Origin: an uncultured Methanosarcinales archaeon
Lineage (GTDB): Archaea > Nanobdellota > Nanobdellia > Woesearchaeales > GW2011-AR9
Length of the DNA: 64,000 nt
Direction of reading: 5' to 3'
Assembly (NCBI GenBank): GCA_964344285.1
Contig: CAYFMM010000004.1
Location: forward strand, 109,526 to 173,525
The position numbers and the translations under genes were made by a program. Of this stretch, positions 19,341 through 50,366 are shown in pieces. The notes beneath the pieces are model-generated. The model searched no databases. It was not told the origin of the DNA and worked only from the letters and a program-made list of their open reading frames with translations. How positions within the stretch are numbered: the stretch's first letter is position 1; each line of letters opens with the position of its first letter.

Positions 19341-20378
19341 ATGGGCTTACAATTTCGTGATATAGTTGTAAAAAAAGAAGTTGCTATCCATGAACTCAAA
19401 GATAAAATTCTTGCAATTGACTCAATGAATCTTTTGTACCAATTTCTAACAACTATTAGGTCAGCAGATGGCTCTGTGCTTACTGATTCTAAAGGTAATG
19501 TGACTTCACACTTAATTGGGCTATTTAGCAGAACAACAACGTTAATGGAATCAGGATTAAAACTAGTTTTTGTTTTTGATGGAAAACCACCTGCAATTAA
19601 ACAAAAAACGTGGGAAAAACGTAAAGAAATCAAAAAAGAAGCATCATTAAAACTACAACAAGCAACTGACGATGGGAACATAGAAGAAATGAAAAAGTTT
19701 GCATCACGAACTTCTGTTCTCACAAAAGAAATGATTGCAGATGCAAAAGCTCTCATTCAGGCTTTAGGACTACCAATCGTTCAAGCACCATCAGAAGGAG
19801 AAGCACAAACTGCATTCATGGTAAAAGAAAAACATGCTTATGCTTCCATTAGTCAAGATTATGACAATCTTATTTTTGGCTGCCCTCTTCTCATTAGAAA
19901 CTTATCCATTGCTGGAAAAAGAAAAAAAACAGGCAAGTTTGGTTATCAAACTGTAAAACCAGAAATGATTCTTCTTGACGACGTTCTAAACAATCTTGAT
20001 ATAAATCAAGACCAACTGATTATTCTTGCAATTTTAGTTGGAACTGATTATAATCCTGGTGGCGTAAAAGGAATTGGTCCCAAGACTGGAATTAAGCTAG
20101 TCAAAGAATACAAAGACAATTATGATAAACTCTTTACAAAAGTAGAATGGAGTACTCATTATCCAGAGTTACAGTGGCAAGAAATTTTTTCAACTATTAA
20201 AGACATTCCAGTTACAAACGACTTTAACTTGGAATGGAAAAGTGTTGATGAAGCACAAGTACAAAAAATTCTCATTGAAAAACATGACTTTACAAAAGAA
20301 AGAGTGGAATCAAAACTTGAAAAGTTGCGTGAACTTAGAGGCAAAGGAACACAAAAAGGTCTTTCTAGTTTTTTTTAA
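19341..20378 (+). CDS. fen: Flap endonuclease 1
   Basis: AIDSMNLLYQFL, VFVFDG, APSEGEAQ, SQDYD, GTDYNPGGVKGIGPK, C-terminal PIP box QKGLSSFF. Confidence 0.98.
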   Translation: MGLQFRDIVVKKEVAIHELKDKILAIDSMNLLYQFLTTIRSADGSVLTDSKGNVTSHLIGLFSRTTTLMESGLKLVFVFDGKPPAIKQKTWEKRKEIKKEASLKLQQATDDGNIEEMKKFASRTSVLTKEMIADAKALIQALGLPIVQAPSEGEAQTAFMVKEKHAYASISQDYDNLIFGCPLLIRNLSIAGKRKKTGKFGYQTVKPEMILLDDVLNNLDINQDQLIILAILVGTDYNPGGVKGIGPKTGIKLVKEYKDNYDKLFTKVEWSTHYPELQWQEIFSTIKDIPVTNDFNLEWKSVDEAQVQKILIEKHDFTKERVESKLEKLRELRGKGTQKGLSSFF

Positions 20379-20386
20379 AGCATTTG

Positions 20387-20593
20387 AAGTTTGGTAAGTG
20401 AGCAGCGCCCATCAGAAACAGAATAGTTTCTGGGGGTTCAAGAAAATGGGAAATTTTCTGAACTAAAAACTTTGTTTTTCTGTTCCAGAAATCCTTGATT
20501 TCTCAGAACCCATCGAGGCGCACGACATTCTAGGCTAAGGTTAATTTAATTGATGTCGTAATGGGCGCCGTGCCCTGCTCACTGGAAAAACTT
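20387..20593. repeat. Structured intergenic element, copy 1 (with 101-nt nested insert)
   Basis: Ends GTGAGCAGCGCCCATC..GAGGCGC and GCGCCGTGCCCTGCTCAC, shared with 49189-49367. Confidence 0.75.
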
Positions 20594-20620
20594 AAGAATA
20601 ATTAAATTGATAGGGATAAA

Positions 20621-21151
20621 ATGGTAAAAATACTTGTTGGATCAAAAAATCCTGTAAAGATAAACTCTGTTAAACAAGCATTCTCCCACTACTTTGGCGA
20701 CGTTGAGGTAGAAGGAAAACAGGTCCCTTCAAATGTGCCAGATCAACCCTTTGAAGAACAAACCTACCAGGGTGCAAAAAATAGAGCACAAAATCTTAAA
20801 ATAGAATTCCCAGACTATGATTTTTATGTTGGCTTAGAAGCAGGAATTAGTAAAACATTCAATAATTACTTCACATATGGGATAATTTACATTCTTGATA
20901 AAAATGGAAAAGAATCTTTTGGCTCCTCTCCACAATACCCTCTCCCTTCTAAAATAATGCAAAAAGTACTTGCAGGTGGCGAATTAGGTCCAGTTATGGC
21001 AGAAATGTTTGCAAAGCACGATATCAAAACTACATCGGGGGCTGTTGGAGTTTTTACAAAAGATGTCGTCTCAAGAACCGATCTCTACGTACCTGGTGTA
21101 ATTATGGCATTAATCTCTTTTTTGAATCCAGAATTGTTCTTTGAAAAATAA
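20621..21151 (+). CDS. yjjX: Inosine/xanthosine triphosphatase (YjjX family)
   Basis: VGSKNPVK, SNVPDQP, GAKNRA, VGLEAG, GAVGVFT, SRTDLY. Confidence 0.92.
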   Translation: MVKILVGSKNPVKINSVKQAFSHYFGDVEVEGKQVPSNVPDQPFEEQTYQGAKNRAQNLKIEFPDYDFYVGLEAGISKTFNNYFTYGIIYILDKNGKESFGSSPQYPLPSKIMQKVLAGGELGPVMAEMFAKHDIKTTSGAVGVFTKDVVSRTDLYVPGVIMALISFLNPELFFEK

Positions 21152-31362: not shown

Positions 31363-31791
31363 ATGATGGCTAAAAAAGTTGTAAGAAAAGCCGCTCCTAA
31401 GAAAAAAGCTGTGAAAAGAGCACCTGCAAAAAAGAAGGTAGCAGCTAAGAAAAAGGTAGTGGCAAAGAAGAAAGTCGCAACAAGAAAGAAGGTGGCTACA
31501 CGTAAAAAAGCAGCTGTTAAGAAAAAGGCTCCTGCAAAGAAAAAAGCAGCAGCAAAAAAGAAACCAGCAGCAAAGAAAAAAGTAGCAGCTAAAAAGAAAC
31601 CAGCGGCAAAGAAAAAAGCTCCTGCAAAGAAAAAAGCGGCAGCAAAAAAGAAAGTAGCAAAGAAAAAAGTTGTTAAGAAAAAGGCAGTTGCAAAGAAAAG
31701 AACAGCAGCAAAAAAGAAAACTGCAGCAAAGAAAAAAGCACCAGCTAAAAAGAAAGTAGCTAAGAAAAAAACAACTAAGAAAAGAAGATAA
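31363..31791 (+). CDS. Histone H1-like / Hc2-like Lys-Ala-rich protein
   Basis: Almost entirely KKK/A/P/V/T repeats (PAKKKAAAKKK); SD GAGGTG; mixed synonymous codons. Confidence 0.85.
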   Translation: MMAKKVVRKAAPKKKAVKRAPAKKKVAAKKKVVAKKKVATRKKVATRKKAAVKKKAPAKKKAAAKKKPAAKKKVAAKKKPAAKKKAPAKKKAAAKKKVAKKKVVKKKAVAKKRTAAKKKTAAKKKAPAKKKVAKKKTTKKRR

Positions 31792-37583: not shown

Positions 37584-38261
37584 ATGGTAAGCATGCTTGT
37601 TAATTTTTGGTTATCCTTTCTTGCAGGACTCTTTGCTCCACTGGGCGCAGTCTGTGTTTTACCGTTGTATCCTGGGTTTCTTTCATATTTAGCAAGCAAA
37701 ACATCTACAGATAGTTCTAAGAAAACAATTATCATGTATGGTGTAATTGTTGTACTTGGCGTTCTCTCCTCTATGCTTTTAATTGGGCTAATCTTTTCAA
37801 CAATTCTTAAAGCATCACTCACAAAAGCAATTGGCATTATCTCACCGATTGCCTTTGGCATTTTAGCAATCATTAGTCTACTCTTAATCTTTAATGTAGA
37901 CATCACTCGTTTTTTACCAAAACTAAACGCACCAGTTCTTAAAAATCCTTACTTTAGTGCGTATGTCTTTGGATTTTTATTTGGTGCAATTGTACTTCCT
38001 TGCAATCCAGCATCACTCGCAGTTTTATTTGCAGTAAGCACATCAACAGTTAGCTTCATTACAAATTTCATCAACTTTATGCTTTTTGGCTTAGGGATGG
38101 GGCTACCTCTCTTGATTTTAGCATTCATCTCTGCAGCTAAAAGTCAACAAGTGATTGGCTTTTTAACAAAACAAAAAAGATTAATTAATCTAATTGCAGG
38201 AATCATAATGCTTGGTATTTCAATATATTACCTTGTATTTGTATTTCGCATCTTTGGGTGA
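37584..38261 (+). CDS. ccdA: CcdA/DsbD transmembrane electron-transfer protein
   Basis: AVCVLPLYPGFLSY and LPCN; six TM helices. Confidence 0.88.
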   Translation: MVSMLVNFWLSFLAGLFAPLGAVCVLPLYPGFLSYLASKTSTDSSKKTIIMYGVIVVLGVLSSMLLIGLIFSTILKASLTKAIGIISPIAFGILAIISLLLIFNVDITRFLPKLNAPVLKNPYFSAYVFGFLFGAIVLPCNPASLAVLFAVSTSTVSFITNFINFMLFGLGMGLPLLILAFISAAKSQQVIGFLTKQKRLINLIAGIIMLGISIYYLVFVFRIFG

Positions 38262-39346
38262 AAAAAATGAAAAAAAAGAATTATTTATTATTTACAACAA
38301 TTGCAATTGTTTTGCTTTTTGTAGTCAGTTGCCAAACACCACAACATACTGATGATGCTACACAAGACAATCCACCTACAACAGAATCTGACACACCAAC
38401 TGATTTTGAGCAAAACCCAGGTGCAACACCTCTTTTAGATGGAGAGATTCAAACAACTAGCGATGGCACAAAATATATTGTAAATCCAAATGAGATTCTC
38501 TCTGGAGGTCCTCCAAAAGGAGGCATTGGTTTTGATCGAGGAATTCCTGCTTTGGCAGAAAAAAACATTGACTTTGTGACGGTACAAGTTGCAGATAAGT
38601 GGATACAAGACCAAGAATTAGTACTTGCATTACAATATGATGGCGTAAAAAGAGTATATCCTCTGCAAATTTTAGTCTTTCATGAAATTGTTAACGATGA
38701 AATTAATGGTCTACCAATTTTAATTACCTATTGCCCACTCTGCGGTTCAGGCATTGCCTATGAACGCACAATTGAACTAAATGGGCAAAAAGTTGCAACA
38801 CGCTTTGGAACGTCAGGCAAACTCTATAACTCTAACTTAGTAATGTATGATGAATCAACAGACACTTATTGGCAACAAATTGATGGTAAAGCAATTGTTG
38901 GCAAGCTTACAGGTCAAGAACTCAACAAAATATCTATTGACACTGTTGCTTGGCGCGATTGGAAAAAAGCTCATCCGGAATCTGAAGTGTTATCACAGAA
39001 AACAGGTATGAATCGCCCATATGGAAATGACCCTTACCCAGGATACTATGAAAACTCATTTCTCTTTTTTCCGGTAGACAATGAAGATAATTCAATTCAC
39101 CCTAAAACAGTAATCTTTGGCACTGAAGTTGGCGGTGTGTACAAAGCATATCGAGAGGAAGATTTGCTTGAAACTCCTATCATTAAAGATGTGGTCAATG
39201 ACGTTAATATTGTTGTGGAGCGAGGAGATGATGGTGTTGTAAAAATTATAAATCAGCAGACAGGGGAAGAAATTGTCAAAGAACGCGACTTTTGGTTCGC
39301 TTGGTATGCATTTCATCCTAATACGCAATTATATGGTGCACAATGA
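38258..39346 (+). CDS. DUF3179-family lipoprotein
   Basis: Lipobox VVSC, SGGPPK..GIPA, ITYCPLCGS, SGKLYNSNLVMYD..T.TYW.Q, FWFAWYAFHP. Confidence 0.88.
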   Translation: MKKMKKKNYLLFTTIAIVLLFVVSCQTPQHTDDATQDNPPTTESDTPTDFEQNPGATPLLDGEIQTTSDGTKYIVNPNEILSGGPPKGGIGFDRGIPALAEKNIDFVTVQVADKWIQDQELVLALQYDGVKRVYPLQILVFHEIVNDEINGLPILITYCPLCGSGIAYERTIELNGQKVATRFGTSGKLYNSNLVMYDESTDTYWQQIDGKAIVGKLTGQELNKISIDTVAWRDWKKAHPESEVLSQKTGMNRPYGNDPYPGYYENSFLFFPVDNEDNSIHPKTVIFGTEVGGVYKAYREEDLLETPIIKDVVNDVNIVVERGDDGVVKIINQQTGEEIVKERDFWFAWYAFHPNTQLYGAQ

Positions 39347-39531
39347 AATATCCTTTGCATACCAAGTGTCACGAACGTAACGAGGTGGAGTGACTTTGAC
39401 GCGTGGTACGCTTTCCACCCTAATACACAACTCTATCAACAAACTAATCAACAATAAGTGCCACGTGTCCCGAATGATAATGAGGATATGCGTGGTATGC
39501 ATTTCACCCTAACACTAAAATATATGGCTGA
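39299..39531 (+). repeat. Three diverged copies of the DUF3179 3' end (AWYAFHPNT.[LI]Y) separated by hairpins
   Basis: Copies start at 39299, 39401 and 39490; differences are mostly synonymous. Confidence 0.85.
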
Positions 39532-41027: not shown

Positions 41028-41585
41028 TTATCTTTTCTTTTTCTTTGTAGCCTTTTTAGCAGGTTTCTTTTTTGTTGTTACTCTCTTCTTCGCTGCCTTC
41101 TTTTTCACTACTTTTTTCTTTGTAGCCGCCTTTTTCTTTGCAGGAGCTTTCTTTTTGGTAACTTTCTTCTTGCTTGTAGCCTTCTTTGCTGGTTTCTTTT
41201 TTGCTGCTGCTTTTTTCTTCACAGGTTTTTTTGCAACCTTCTTAACTGCTTTCTTTTTAGCGGGAGCCTTTTTCTTCGCTGTTGCTTTCTTCTTTGTAGC
41301 CACTTTTTTTGCAGTCTTTTTCACAACAACTTTTTTTGTAGGCTTAGCAACCTTTTTAGTGCCAACTGCCTCTTGTAATGCTTTAGGGTCAAATCCTACT
41401 AAAATTTTATCTTTAACCTCAATTACTGGAACGCCCATCTGTCCTGACTTTTCAATCATTGCATCTCGCGCCTTTACATCAACAGAAACATCATACTCCT
41501 TAAACGCAACATTGTTCTTTTTCAAAAACTCCTTTGTTTTAGCACACCATGGGCATGTTGGTGTAGTATATATTTTAATTGCCAT
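41028..41585 (-). CDS. Glutaredoxin (NrdH/YruB-like, CPWC) fused to a histone-H1-like Lys/Ala tail
   Basis: IYTTPTCPWC..SGQMGVPVI..VGFD, then about 110 aa of KKPAKK-type repeats. Confidence 0.88.
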   Translation of the reverse strand: MAIKIYTTPTCPWCAKTKEFLKKNNVAFKEYDVSVDVKARDAMIEKSGQMGVPVIEVKDKILVGFDPKALQEAVGTKKVAKPTKKVVVKKTAKKVATKKKATAKKKAPAKKKAVKKVAKKPVKKKAAAKKKPAKKATSKKKVTKKKAPAKKKAATKKKVVKKKAAKKRVTTKKKPAKKATKKKKR

Positions 41586-47517: not shown

Positions 47518-47841
47518 ATGGCAAAAAAATCTTCTATTACAAAAGCTCCAGTAAAAAGAGCAAAAAAAACAGCACGAAAAGTAACAAAGAAAATTTCTAA
47601 AAAAGCTAAGCCGTCCTTAGTTGGAAGAGCAACAAAAACAGCACAAAAAGTTTCTAAAGATCTAAAGAAATATCAAGATAAAGCACACAAAGAGTTAGCA
47701 AAAGCAAAAAAGAGCTTTATCAAGCATGAAAAAGAGATAATAGCATATGCAAAAAAAAATCCTGAAAAAGCACTTGCCATTGCAGCAGGTTTAGGTGTAG
47801 CGATGGCATCTGTTGCCGCATTACTCAAAAAGAGAAAATAA
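47518..47841 (+). CDS. Lys-rich protein with ElaB/YqjD (DUF883)-like C-terminus
   Basis: YAKKNPEKALAIAAGLG..LLKKRK tail anchor; SD GAGGTGG. Confidence 0.65.
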   Translation: MAKKSSITKAPVKRAKKTARKVTKKISKKAKPSLVGRATKTAQKVSKDLKKYQDKAHKELAKAKKSFIKHEKEIIAYAKKNPEKALAIAAGLGVAMASVAALLKKRK

Positions 47842-48233: not shown

Positions 48234-49184
48234 ATGAAAAAACTAAACTCAGTAAAAGAACTGCAATTTATGGCAGATGTGATTAGGGAAGATATCATTA
48301 CTTCTTTAGTTCACGCAAAATCAGGCCACTCTGCAGGTCCTTTGGGCTTAGCAGATATCTTTACTGCACTCTATTTCAATGTACTCAAACACAATCCTAA
48401 AAAACCAAAATGGGTACAACGAGATTATTTTATTCTTTCTAACGGCCATGTTTGTCCTGTACTTTATGCAACAATGGCAAATGCAGGCTATTTCCCTAAA
48501 AAAGAACTTCTGACTCTAAGAAAACTTGGCACAAGGTTGCAGGGTCATCCTCACAGAGCAGCACTTGCTGGACTTGAAACAACCTCTGGTCCACTTGGCT
48601 CTGGTCTATCTCAAGCAGCAGGTATGGCATTAGGCTTTAAAATGGATAAAAAGTCAAATCTTGTCTTTTGTATGCTTGGAGATGGTGAGCAAGATGAAGG
48701 TAACCATTGGGAGGCAGTAATGTTTGCTGCAAAAAACAAACTCAATAATATTATTGCAATAACTGATCGAAACTATATTCAAATTGATGGAGATACTGAA
48801 GATGTTATGCCTTTAGATCCACTTGATGAAAAATACAAATCATTTAATTGGGATGTTATTACGATTGATGGCAATAATATGAAACAAATCCTTACAGCAT
48901 TACAAAAAGCACGCGGCAATACAAAAAAGAGAAAAAAACCACTTATGATTATTGCAAACACAGTTCCTGGAAAAGGAGTTGCATTTATGGAAAATGACTA
49001 CCGTTGGCATGGAGCTCCTCCTGGAGGAAATAAAACTGAGAGGTCTCCAGAAAAAGAAGATCAAGCAAGTGTAGCACTTGCACAAATTCATGCTCAAGAA
49101 GTAAACGAACGTGGAGACTGGATCTTGCTACATCAAAAATATAAGCCACTTCACTTATTTGAAAAAAAGAAAAATAAAAAATGA
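48234..49184 (+). CDS. tktA: Transketolase, N-terminal subunit
   Basis: SGHSAG, DYFILSNGH, LQGHP, GPLGSGLSQA, LGDGEQDEG..WEA (TPP binding). Confidence 0.95.
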   Translation: MKKLNSVKELQFMADVIREDIITSLVHAKSGHSAGPLGLADIFTALYFNVLKHNPKKPKWVQRDYFILSNGHVCPVLYATMANAGYFPKKELLTLRKLGTRLQGHPHRAALAGLETTSGPLGSGLSQAAGMALGFKMDKKSNLVFCMLGDGEQDEGNHWEAVMFAAKNKLNNIIAITDRNYIQIDGDTEDVMPLDPLDEKYKSFNWDVITIDGNNMKQILTALQKARGNTKKRKKPLMIIANTVPGKGVAFMENDYRWHGAPPGGNKTERSPEKEDQASVALAQIHAQEVNERGDWILLHQKYKPLHLFEKKKNKK

Positions 49185-49188
49185 GGAT

Positions 49189-49367
49189 GTATTAAGTTAA
49201 GTGGGTGAGCAGTGCCCATCGAGGTGCATTGCGTGCCAGATAAAAATTAAGTAAGAAGACGTAATAAGAGGCACATAAAATAAAACAATGAGTTTATTTT
49301 AGTGCTAAAAACTAATCGTTGTTAGTTTTTATGCACCGTGCCCTGCTCACAGGAACGAACTTAATAC
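49189..49367. repeat. Structured intergenic element, copy 2
   Basis: GTATTAAGTT/AACTTAATAC outer stem; GTGAGCAGTGCCCATCGAGGTGCA..TGCACCGTGCCCTGCTCAC. Confidence 0.75.
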
Positions 49368-49382
49368 AAAAACATAATCAAA

Positions 49383-50366
49383 ATGAACTTACAACAACTC
49401 AAAAAATTAAATGCAAAGCTAAATCTAAACTTCTTTAGACAGGCAGTTCCTACCAGAAATGGGTATGGTGAAGCGCTAGTTGATATTGGAAAAAGAAACA
49501 AAAATGTTGTAGTTCTTTGTGCAGACTTAGCAGAATCTACAAGAGTACATCACTTTCGTAAAAAATTCCCTAAGCGCTACATAGAAATGGGTGTGGCAGA
49601 ACAAAACCTTGTTACTGTTGCCTCAGGCCTTGCAGCTGTTGGCAAAATTCCCTTTGCTTCATCCTATGCTGCTTTTTGTCCAGGAAGATGTTGGGAGCAA
49701 ATTAGAACAACTATCTGCTATAACGATCAAAATGTAAAAGTCGTTGGAGCACATGCAGGAATTTCTGTAGGCCCAGACGGTGCGACACATCAAGCCTTAG
49801 AAGATATTGCAATTATGCGCTCTCTTCCTAATATGATCGTAGTTGTTCCTGCAGATTATGAACAAACTAAAAAAGCAACTAAAGCCATTGCCTCATTCAA
49901 AGGCCCATCTTATCTTAGGCTTGCAAGAGAAAAAACTCCACAGATGACAACTGCTAAAACTCCATTTACAATAGGAAAGGCTCAAATCCTTAAAGATGGT
50001 TCAGACATTGCTCTAATTGCAGCAGGCCCTCCTCTTTATGAATGCTTAGCTGCAGCACATAAACTTCAAGAAAAAGGAATTAATGCCATGGTTATTAACT
50101 GTCATACAATAAAACCATTAGACAAAAAAACAATTTTAATGGCAGCAAAAAAATGTAAAAAAATTATCACAGTTGAAGAAGCACAAATCACAGGAGGGCT
50201 CGGTGGAGCAATCTCTGAATTTCTTGCAGAAAATCACCCCACAAAACTTCAAAGAATAGGAGTAAAAGACCATTATGGGGAATCTGGAAGTCCAAATGAA
50301 CTTCTTACAAAATTTGGTTTTAGTGCTGATAACATCTACAAACAAGCAGTAAAATTATGTAAATAA
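49383..50366 (+). CDS. tktB: Transketolase, C-terminal subunit
   Basis: TRNGYG, CADLAEST, EMGVAEQNL, GPDGATHQALEDIA, HTIKPLD. Confidence 0.95.
   Translation: MNLQQLKKLNAKLNLNFFRQAVPTRNGYGEALVDIGKRNKNVVVLCADLAESTRVHHFRKKFPKRYIEMGVAEQNLVTVASGLAAVGKIPFASSYAAFCPGRCWEQIRTTICYNDQNVKVVGAHAGISVGPDGATHQALEDIAIMRSLPNMIVVVPADYEQTKKATKAIASFKGPSYLRLAREKTPQMTTAKTPFTIGKAQILKDGSDIALIAAGPPLYECLAAAHKLQEKGINAMVINCHTIKPLDKKTILMAAKKCKKIITVEEAQITGGLGGAISEFLAENHPTKLQRIGVKDHYGESGSPNELLTKFGFSADNIYKQAVKLCK

Follow-up and report, generated by a model that had tools for sequence, protein, structure and literature searches.

The window, by which we mean the whole 64-kb stretch of Woesearchaeal DNA that was analysed (positions 1-64000; GC 0.34), contains two structured loci that are very probably copies of a non-autonomous, MITE-like foldback DNA transposon of groundwater Woesearchaeota/Nanoarchaeia. 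The best reading is that the element is a genomic parasite and not a riboswitch or ribozyme. Every testable feature that defines a MITE was found, with the exception of an identified parent IS. We found no description of this MITE family, which appears to be previously undescribed.

The initial annotation reported two structured copies with shared ends, and the coordinates and motifs of both were confirmed. Copy A is located at 49185-49371 (+) and copy B at approximately 20379-20602 (+). When up to three mismatches are allowed, the 5' motif GTGAGCAGYGCCCATC has sites in the window at 20398 and 49205 only (chance mean 0.18) and the 3' motif GCRCCGTGCCCTGCTCAC at 20565 and 49333 only (0 in 100 shuffles). 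Both copies have the AAGTT/AACTT outer pairing and the GGAA block, and the GGYGC/GCRCC stem covaries as described, with T-A in copy A and C-G in copy B. At a GC content of 0.37-0.47 against 0.34 for the window, the element stands out as GC-rich from its AT-rich surroundings. The window has no tRNA or tmRNA (ARAGORN), no rRNA and no match to any Rfam family (0 hits at gathering thresholds), in agreement with the earlier failure to recognize a known riboswitch or ribozyme. A covariance model was built, as had been suggested, and gave no third copy in the window and no further one in approximately 860 kb of other loci. The genes flanking the two copies are as follows:

48234-49184, gene for the N-terminal half of transketolase, 5' of copy A
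49383-50366, gene for the C-terminal half of transketolase, 3' of copy A
19341-20378, FEN1/XPG nuclease gene, 5' of copy B
20621-21151, DUF84 NTPase gene, 3' of copy B

These coordinates bear out the observation that both copies lie between co-oriented genes and that copy A parts the two transketolase halves; the distances given from the copies to the start codons (15 and 27 nt) were also correct. Two other statements had to be revised. The interiors were said to differ completely, but both copies have a homologous 7-bp hairpin directly after GGYGC, each with a 24-nt AT-rich loop. The unpaired segment CCCATCGA was said to be invariant, but other family members have CCAATGGA, CCCATTGA or CCCTGACGTAGTCGA. 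Within the window the first Y (in AGYGCC) shifts in step with the other two variable positions, but this does not hold for the rest of the family.

An exact 20-mer from the 3' end was searched in 185,579 species genomes. This gave two true homologues, both in DPANN archaea: L003, in a Hainich aquifer MAG of the Nanoarchaeota, and L004, in Woesearchaeota CG10_45_16. Six other hits were chance matches in GC-rich bacteria. A looser pattern run over metagenomes re-found the L003 and L004 sites and added a further copy, L009. Viral contigs gave only chance hits in three end-motif scans, and blastn against plasmids gave no match to the element. Judged by its transketolase and FEN1 homologues, the window organism belongs to the Woesearchaeota/Nanoarchaeia, and these proteins are only 74-79% identical to their nearest relatives. 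The family looks low-copy and old, and not like a recent burst.

The anatomy of the family was derived from five full copies (A, B, L003, L004 and L009) and a few partial variants. The element is approximately 120-225 nt in length (133 nt in L009) and each end is an imperfect inverted repeat of approximately 35-45 bp, made up of a terminal block, a spacer, an inner block and a few further matching bases. The 14-bp terminal block GTACGTATTWAGTT pairs with AACTWAATACGTAC, and the TIR extends over 14 bp in L004 and L009, 12 of 14 positions in L003, 10 bp in copy A and 5 bp in copy B. In the first internal loop the 5' strand reads AAGTGG and the 3' strand NGGAA(N1-3) (spacer 6-8 nt). There is then an invariant inner helix of 8 bp (GTGAGCAG/CTGCTCAC), another asymmetric loop in which YGCCC..TCGA faces GTGCC, and a 5-bp helix that occurs as GGTGC/GCACC, GGCGC/GCGCC or GCCAC/GTGGC. 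Stacked on the 5-bp helix is a central hairpin with a 6-8-bp stem and an 11-24-nt AT-rich loop, the anatomy of the five full copies giving 7-8 bp and 21-24 nt, and the stems differ in all five copies (ATTGCGT, ACGACAT, ACGGCATC, ATGGTGAC and ATAACGCA, each with its complement). Subfamily inserts are found at two fixed points, with two 5' hairpins in copy B and L004 and two 3' hairpins in copy A. The 5' loop of L009 is 8 nt longer and the core of L003 is partly decayed (GTGAGCtG, GCCaATgGA). Copy A is arranged as follows:

49176-49184 (+), possible degraded left TSD AAAAAATGA, in which the gene for the N-terminal transketolase half has its stop codon
49185-49198 (+), left TIR GGATGTATTAAGTT, the inner 10 nt of which pair with 49358-49367
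49199-49204 (+), asymmetric left-end spacer AAGTGG, the same in L004 and L009 and AAGTGA in L003
49205-49222 (+), inner block GTGAGCAG then TGCCCATCGA, with GTGAGCAG pairing with 49343-49350
49223-49227 (+), 5' arm of the short helix, GGTGC, pairing with GCACC at 49333-49337
49228-49265 (+), central hairpin ATTGCGT, 24-nt AT-rich loop, ACGTAAT, its pairing conserved and its sequence fast-evolving
49266-49332 (+), 67-nt insert specific to copy A on the 3' side, with two more hairpins, unique and non-repeat
49333-49357 (+), right inner end GCACC, GTGCC, CTGCTCAC, AGGAACG
49358-49371 (+), right TIR AACTTAATACAAAA, with the outer 4 nt diverged

The outer helix of copy A is 10 bp (49189-49198 with 49358-49367), and the outer 4 nt of the left TIR have diverged from the family consensus GTAC, which is taken from L004 and L009. 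The right flank ACATAATCA (49372-49380) is identical to AAAAAATGA at six of nine positions, which is not significant in AT-rich DNA. The sequence AAAATGA flanks copy A on both sides, the right one being at 49380-49386. The central-hairpin loops of copy A and L003 have an identical 12-mer, AAAAATTAAGTA (49240-49251; L003 2171-2182), despite their different stems, and this 12-mer resembles the element's own terminal ATTAAGTTAAG. Copy B has the following parts:

20379-20397 (+), degraded left end, in which only AAGTT (20387-20391) still pairs, with AACTT (20589-20593); spacer TGGTAA
20398-20413 (+), inner block GTGAGCAG then CGCCCATC
20414-20511 (+), subfamily insert with two hairpins, AGAAAC..GTTTCT and GGGTTC..GAACCC
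20512-20564 (+), ATCGA, GGCGC, central hairpin and linker AATGG
20522-20559 (+), central hairpin ACGACAT/ATGTCGT with a 24-nt loop
20565-20602 (+), right end GCGCC, GTGCC, CTGCTCAC, TGGAAA, AACTT and degraded terminus

The insert in copy B is 98 nt long and on the 5' side; L004 has the same architecture, with GGGTCC..GGACCC. It is bracketed by the direct repeat CCCATC (20408-20413 and 20509-20514), and L004 has CCCA at both places. This repeat could be the mark of a duplication or insertion inside copy B, or mere stem sequence. The inserts of copies A and B have no match to other repeats.

The evidence for mobility comes firstly from the flanks. The L004 copy, GTACGTATTTAGTT...AACTAAATACATAC, is flanked on both sides by CTCCTAGA(G), and the L009 copy, GTACGTATTAAGTT...AACTTAATACGTAC, is flanked on both sides by CTCATTAC(G). 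Both are exact TSDs of 8 bp, or 9 bp with the shared G. Such direct repeats, exact and of different sequence, are the signature of a staggered-cut insertion. No TSD is recognizable in the flanks of L003, copy A (where the best match is 6/9) or copy B. Several TSDs or flanks start with CT (CTCATTACG, CTCCTAGAG, CTTAACAAT and CTTTTATGG, at L004 5827/6005, L009 52/184 and metagenome contig ends), which hints at a weak target-site preference.

The empty-site comparison proposed earlier was carried out at the transketolase junction. In four relatives (L086, L087, L088 and the P0007 contig), whose proteins are 75-79% identical to those of the window, the element is missing and the genes for the two halves share a 4-nt overlap (ATGA). 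In the window the two halves are separated by a 198-nt spacer that holds copy A. The overlap in all four relatives shows that this spacer is an insertion. For copy B, the gene order downstream of FEN1 is not conserved in relatives, so a direct empty-site comparison is not available; a second assembly of the window organism has the same insert at this locus. A population-level empty site for the L004 copy was not seen among the groundwater metagenome contigs.

The repetitive nature of the element was tested by aligning groundwater metagenome contigs to the L004 locus (runs X4 and X6). In X4 the depth rises from 22.7 to 175.6 at the left terminus (5827) and falls from 111.6 to 24.1 just past the right terminus (6005). 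The excess is approximately 8-fold and is bounded exactly by the ends of the element, with the central hairpin region at single-copy depth. At the termini the contigs break off and run into many different flanks, and at least eight contigs have other flanks and interiors (X4, X6), including the hairpins ATAAGC..GCTTAT and ATGGCGCA..TGCGCC and the L009-type loop TGACGNAGTCGA. Several of these are at host-genome depth, suggesting that there are further copies in that genome. The parts of copy A with relatives in X4 are 49189-49233 and 49336-49368 only.

The five copies are in five unrelated gene contexts and show three kinds of orientation. Copies A and B are sense between co-oriented genes, L003 is antisense between two minus-strand genes, L004 is between convergent genes and L009 is divergent from its neighbour. 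The copies (124-224 nt) have no coding capacity, their longest ATG-started ORFs being 13-54 aa.

These data bear directly on the proposal that the element is a cis-acting regulatory or catalytic RNA (a riboswitch, ribozyme or protein-binding leader) for the gene 15-27 nt downstream. Conserved unpaired bases do adjoin covarying stems, and both window copies are sense and just upstream of start codons. However, the downstream genes are unrelated (the C-terminal half of transketolase, an NTPase, no gene in one case and, in another, an opposite-strand aminopeptidase), orientation is not conserved and four relatives lack the element at the orthologous transketolase junction. TIRs and TSDs are present, and the element is a multi-copy repeat. 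There was no Rfam hit even at E<10, where copies A and B, L003 and L009 gave only noise (E of about 1 or above), and hammerhead, twister, K-turn, H/ACA and bulge-helix-bulge motifs are absent on reading. The empty site and the variable gene context largely refute a cis-acting RNA, which we consider extremely improbable, and the catalytic, ligand or protein site that had been suggested before the start codons is contradicted by the TIRs, TSDs, empty site, repeat structure and mixed orientation.

A range of known elements was also compared by eye with the five aligned copies. Hammerhead, twister and hairpin-ribozyme cores, the K-turn, H/ACA and C/D boxes, 5S rRNA, SRP RNA, RNase P RNA and archaeal origin boxes do not fit. 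A bulge-helix-bulge intron would have 3-nt bulges 4 bp apart, and the internal loops here are 6 against 6-8 nt and 10 against 5 nt. The GA/GA arrangement of a K-turn (tandem G-A pairs beside a 3-nt bulge) is absent. In H/ACA sRNA the ACA is expected 14-15 nt from the pocket; here it overlaps a stem, and copy B has ACT in its place. A cis-regulatory leader would be expected to keep its position and orientation upstream of homologous genes, and this was not seen.

The secondary structure was assessed in a trimmed alignment of the five copies, in which 88.9% of cells are paired and 13 of the 35 pairs change on both sides. In 500 shuffles the observed percentage paired was never reached, nor was the covariation score, and 13 double-changed pairs were reached once; in slid-register controls the pairing signal collapses. 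All five copies fold far better than shuffled sequence (z = -3.9 to -6.8). The z-scores, and covariation in excess of the shuffles, therefore show that the structure is real. Helix 2 (the GTGAGCAG helix) is 97.5% paired and invariant, whereas three of five pairs in helix 3 (the 5-bp helix) and six of eight in helix 4 (the central hairpin) change on both sides across the family. The plus and minus strands fold equally well in the five copies (-57.6/-52.5, -73.2/-71.9, -41.4/-51.2, -63.2/-65.9 and -51.8/-51.2 kcal/mol), so the pairs are not proof that RNA is the selected molecule. The outer helix has two mismatches, both A-C on the plus strand and not G-U; with the equal folding of the strands, this means that nothing points to one transcribed strand. 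Complementary changes are in fact expected in a foldback transposon, because the paired regions are the arms of an imperfect palindrome of nearly the whole length.

The main rival to the MITE reading accepts that the element is mobile and adds that its asymmetric core and central hairpin are selected as a single-stranded fold, as RNA or ssDNA. We regard this as unlikely. The bacterial foldback repeats ERIC, Correia and bcr1 show similar compensatory changes and act in transcripts. Such a fold could be an mRNA stability or processing module, or could serve the element's own propagation, as has been proposed for those repeats. The pairing statistics and their controls are in its favour, as is the 6-8-bp central stem, which is kept with differing sequence in the five copies and three metagenome variants. 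Additionally, copy B has 51 unchanged core positions despite its diverged outer ends, each window copy sits within a same-strand gene pair and is likely to be transcribed, and compensatory changes are documented in transcribed MITE-like repeats (PMC3184786). Against it, the five copies show no preferred orientation, the two strands are equal in folding, the outer-helix mismatches are A-C and not G-U, and the core of L003 decays too. Part of the invariance of the 3' core is an artefact of the search, in which this core served as the pattern. Template switching can also keep inverted repeats complementary without selection.

Rather more doubtful is the idea that the element is the mobile carrier of a functional single-stranded fold, its conserved asymmetric core displaying a hairpin that is free in sequence and differs from copy to copy. 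If transcribed, such a carrier would be a processing or stability module or a protein- or guide-like RNA, which would serve the element itself or have been exapted by these very small genomes. The central-hairpin sequences were read against the target duplications with a guide-target relationship in mind, and none matched, which counts against such a relationship.

The conserved structure, variable hairpin sequence, conserved asymmetric unpaired bases and imperfect palindrome of whole length would also suit a structure-specific recombination or transposition substrate handled as ssDNA, like integron attC or REPIN/RAYT. This is very improbable. The 8-9-bp TSDs and TIRs point to a staggered double-strand cut, there is no integrase, RAYT or HUH gene nearby, the copies are single and dispersed and not in cassette arrays, and on reading the attC core sites (RYYYAAC / GTTRRRY) are unmatched in copy B. 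REPIN/RAYT and attC share with the element imperfect palindromes, structure conserved above sequence and asymmetric unpaired bases, but they move as single strands without 8-9-bp duplications and are found with a RAYT gene, or with an integrase and arrays of cassettes; nothing of the kind was seen here. When attC was tried as a candidate, copy B fitted neither core site, copy A had no R'' and a left end (GTTAAGT) that fits only R', and the flanks were housekeeping genes. REPIN/RAYT was rejected with duplications present and no RAYT gene nearby.

MITEs are known in archaea from Sulfolobus (SM1-SM4) and haloarchaea. A census found a high density of MITEs, 105 per Mb, in a Woesearchaeal genome (PMC11602168). 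Like prokaryotic MITEs, the element is small, non-coding and intergenic, has TIRs and short TSDs, and occurs as dispersed copies with different flanks and with presence or absence at orthologous sites. In contrast to them, it has no known parent IS, is low-copy and has an interior that differs in each copy, where burst copies would be near-identical; its ends are bipartite and asymmetric and its central hairpin is conserved in structure. Close parallels in form are ERIC, Correia (CREE), RUP and Bacillus bcr1, foldback MITE-like repeats of 100-160 bp that are often co-transcribed with their neighbours, and in bcr1 compensatory changes keep the fold (PMC3184786). The foldback form, the size variants arising from inserts at fixed internal points and the compensatory changes are common to these repeats and the element. 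The repeats differ in being bacterial, in having TA or 5-bp duplications and in their unrelated sequences; RNA effects have been measured for them (RNase E/RNase III cleavage, promoters). IS66 family members have terminal repeats starting GTAAGCG and 8-bp duplications (PMC11946415). The element resembles them in its 8-bp TSD and in ends starting GTA, but the agreement stops after the first three bases and a transposase of the IS66 type was not seen, and kinship with IS66 is only a lead. Finally, the covarying helices flanking conserved internal loops and the GC-rich island are reminiscent of structured ncRNAs in Rfam, but the element matches no model and is mobile, multi-copy, independent of orientation and absent from orthologous sites.

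Taken together, the data argue for the MITE reading. We infer the type of transposase and its supply in trans from the TIRs and TSDs. The enzyme would bind both bipartite ends and excise the element (cut-and-paste), and insertion at a staggered 8-9-bp cut followed by repair would yield the flanking direct repeats. Copy A went in where the stop and start codons of the split transketolase genes overlapped (ATGA), and broke an ancestral translational coupling; both transketolase ORFs are still intact. Copy B would have inserted downstream of the FEN1 gene. Both window copies are presumably read through within their operons, and they are probably old and immobile because their termini are degraded and there is no clear duplication. 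The covarying stems are the two foldback arms, and the conserved loop bases the places where the left and right ends differ.

Some observations count against the MITE reading. No transposase gene was found beside any copy, and the window has no autonomous element with these ends and no third terminal repeat. The window copies lack a clear TSD and have degraded termini, and the family is low-copy and old-looking. The pairing of the central hairpin is perfect while its sequence turns over, each copy having its own version even within one community, and complementarity has been kept through many double changes, which double-stranded cut-and-paste does not obviously need. The inner core of copy B is intact although its termini have decayed. 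This turnover and the intact core of copy B remain unexplained by a purely double-stranded mechanism. The initial annotation had named as a refutation of its reading a MITE of a known IS with no RNA-level constraint; the MITE part of this was borne out, while the parent IS and the absence of a single-strand constraint were not.

In addition to the two copies, the window has three lysine-rich ORFs and a set of repeated gene-end fragments. The ORF at 31363-31791 (+) encodes 142 aa that are nearly all lysine/alanine/valine/proline repeats (AKKKVAAKKK...), in approximately 15 tandem 18-nt units, and its product looks like a histone-H1-like basic protein. At 41028-41585 (-), an N-terminal part of approximately 75 aa with a CPWC motif is fused to a long tail rich in lysine and alanine, whose repeats are of the type seen at 31363-31791; by eye, the N-terminal part looks like a glutaredoxin/thioredoxin fold. 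The third lysine-rich ORF is at 47518-47841. In the region 39299-39527, the last 13 or so codons of the ORF 38258-39346 (FAWYAFHPNTQLYG) recur twice, as DAWYAFHPNTQLYQ and YAWYAFHPNTKIYG, approximately 90-100 nt apart, past the stop codon and in other reading frames.

In summary, a conserved, covarying, GC-rich structure in a DPANN genome is very probably the footprint of a transposon and not a new ribozyme or riboswitch, which is a caution for the discovery of RNA motifs in AT-rich, reduced genomes. The contrast between fixed ends and a hairpin kept in structure but free in sequence raises the question of whether a single-strand fold is something that such elements require or supply; if the element were a carrier of such a fold, it would be the first structured RNA family described as spread by transposition in DPANN archaea. 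Copy A gives a dated example of an insertion that uncouples the overlapping stop and start of a split transketolase operon with neither gene destroyed. The two copies and their relatives also document a MITE-like family in the Woesearchaeota, whose mobile elements are barely described.
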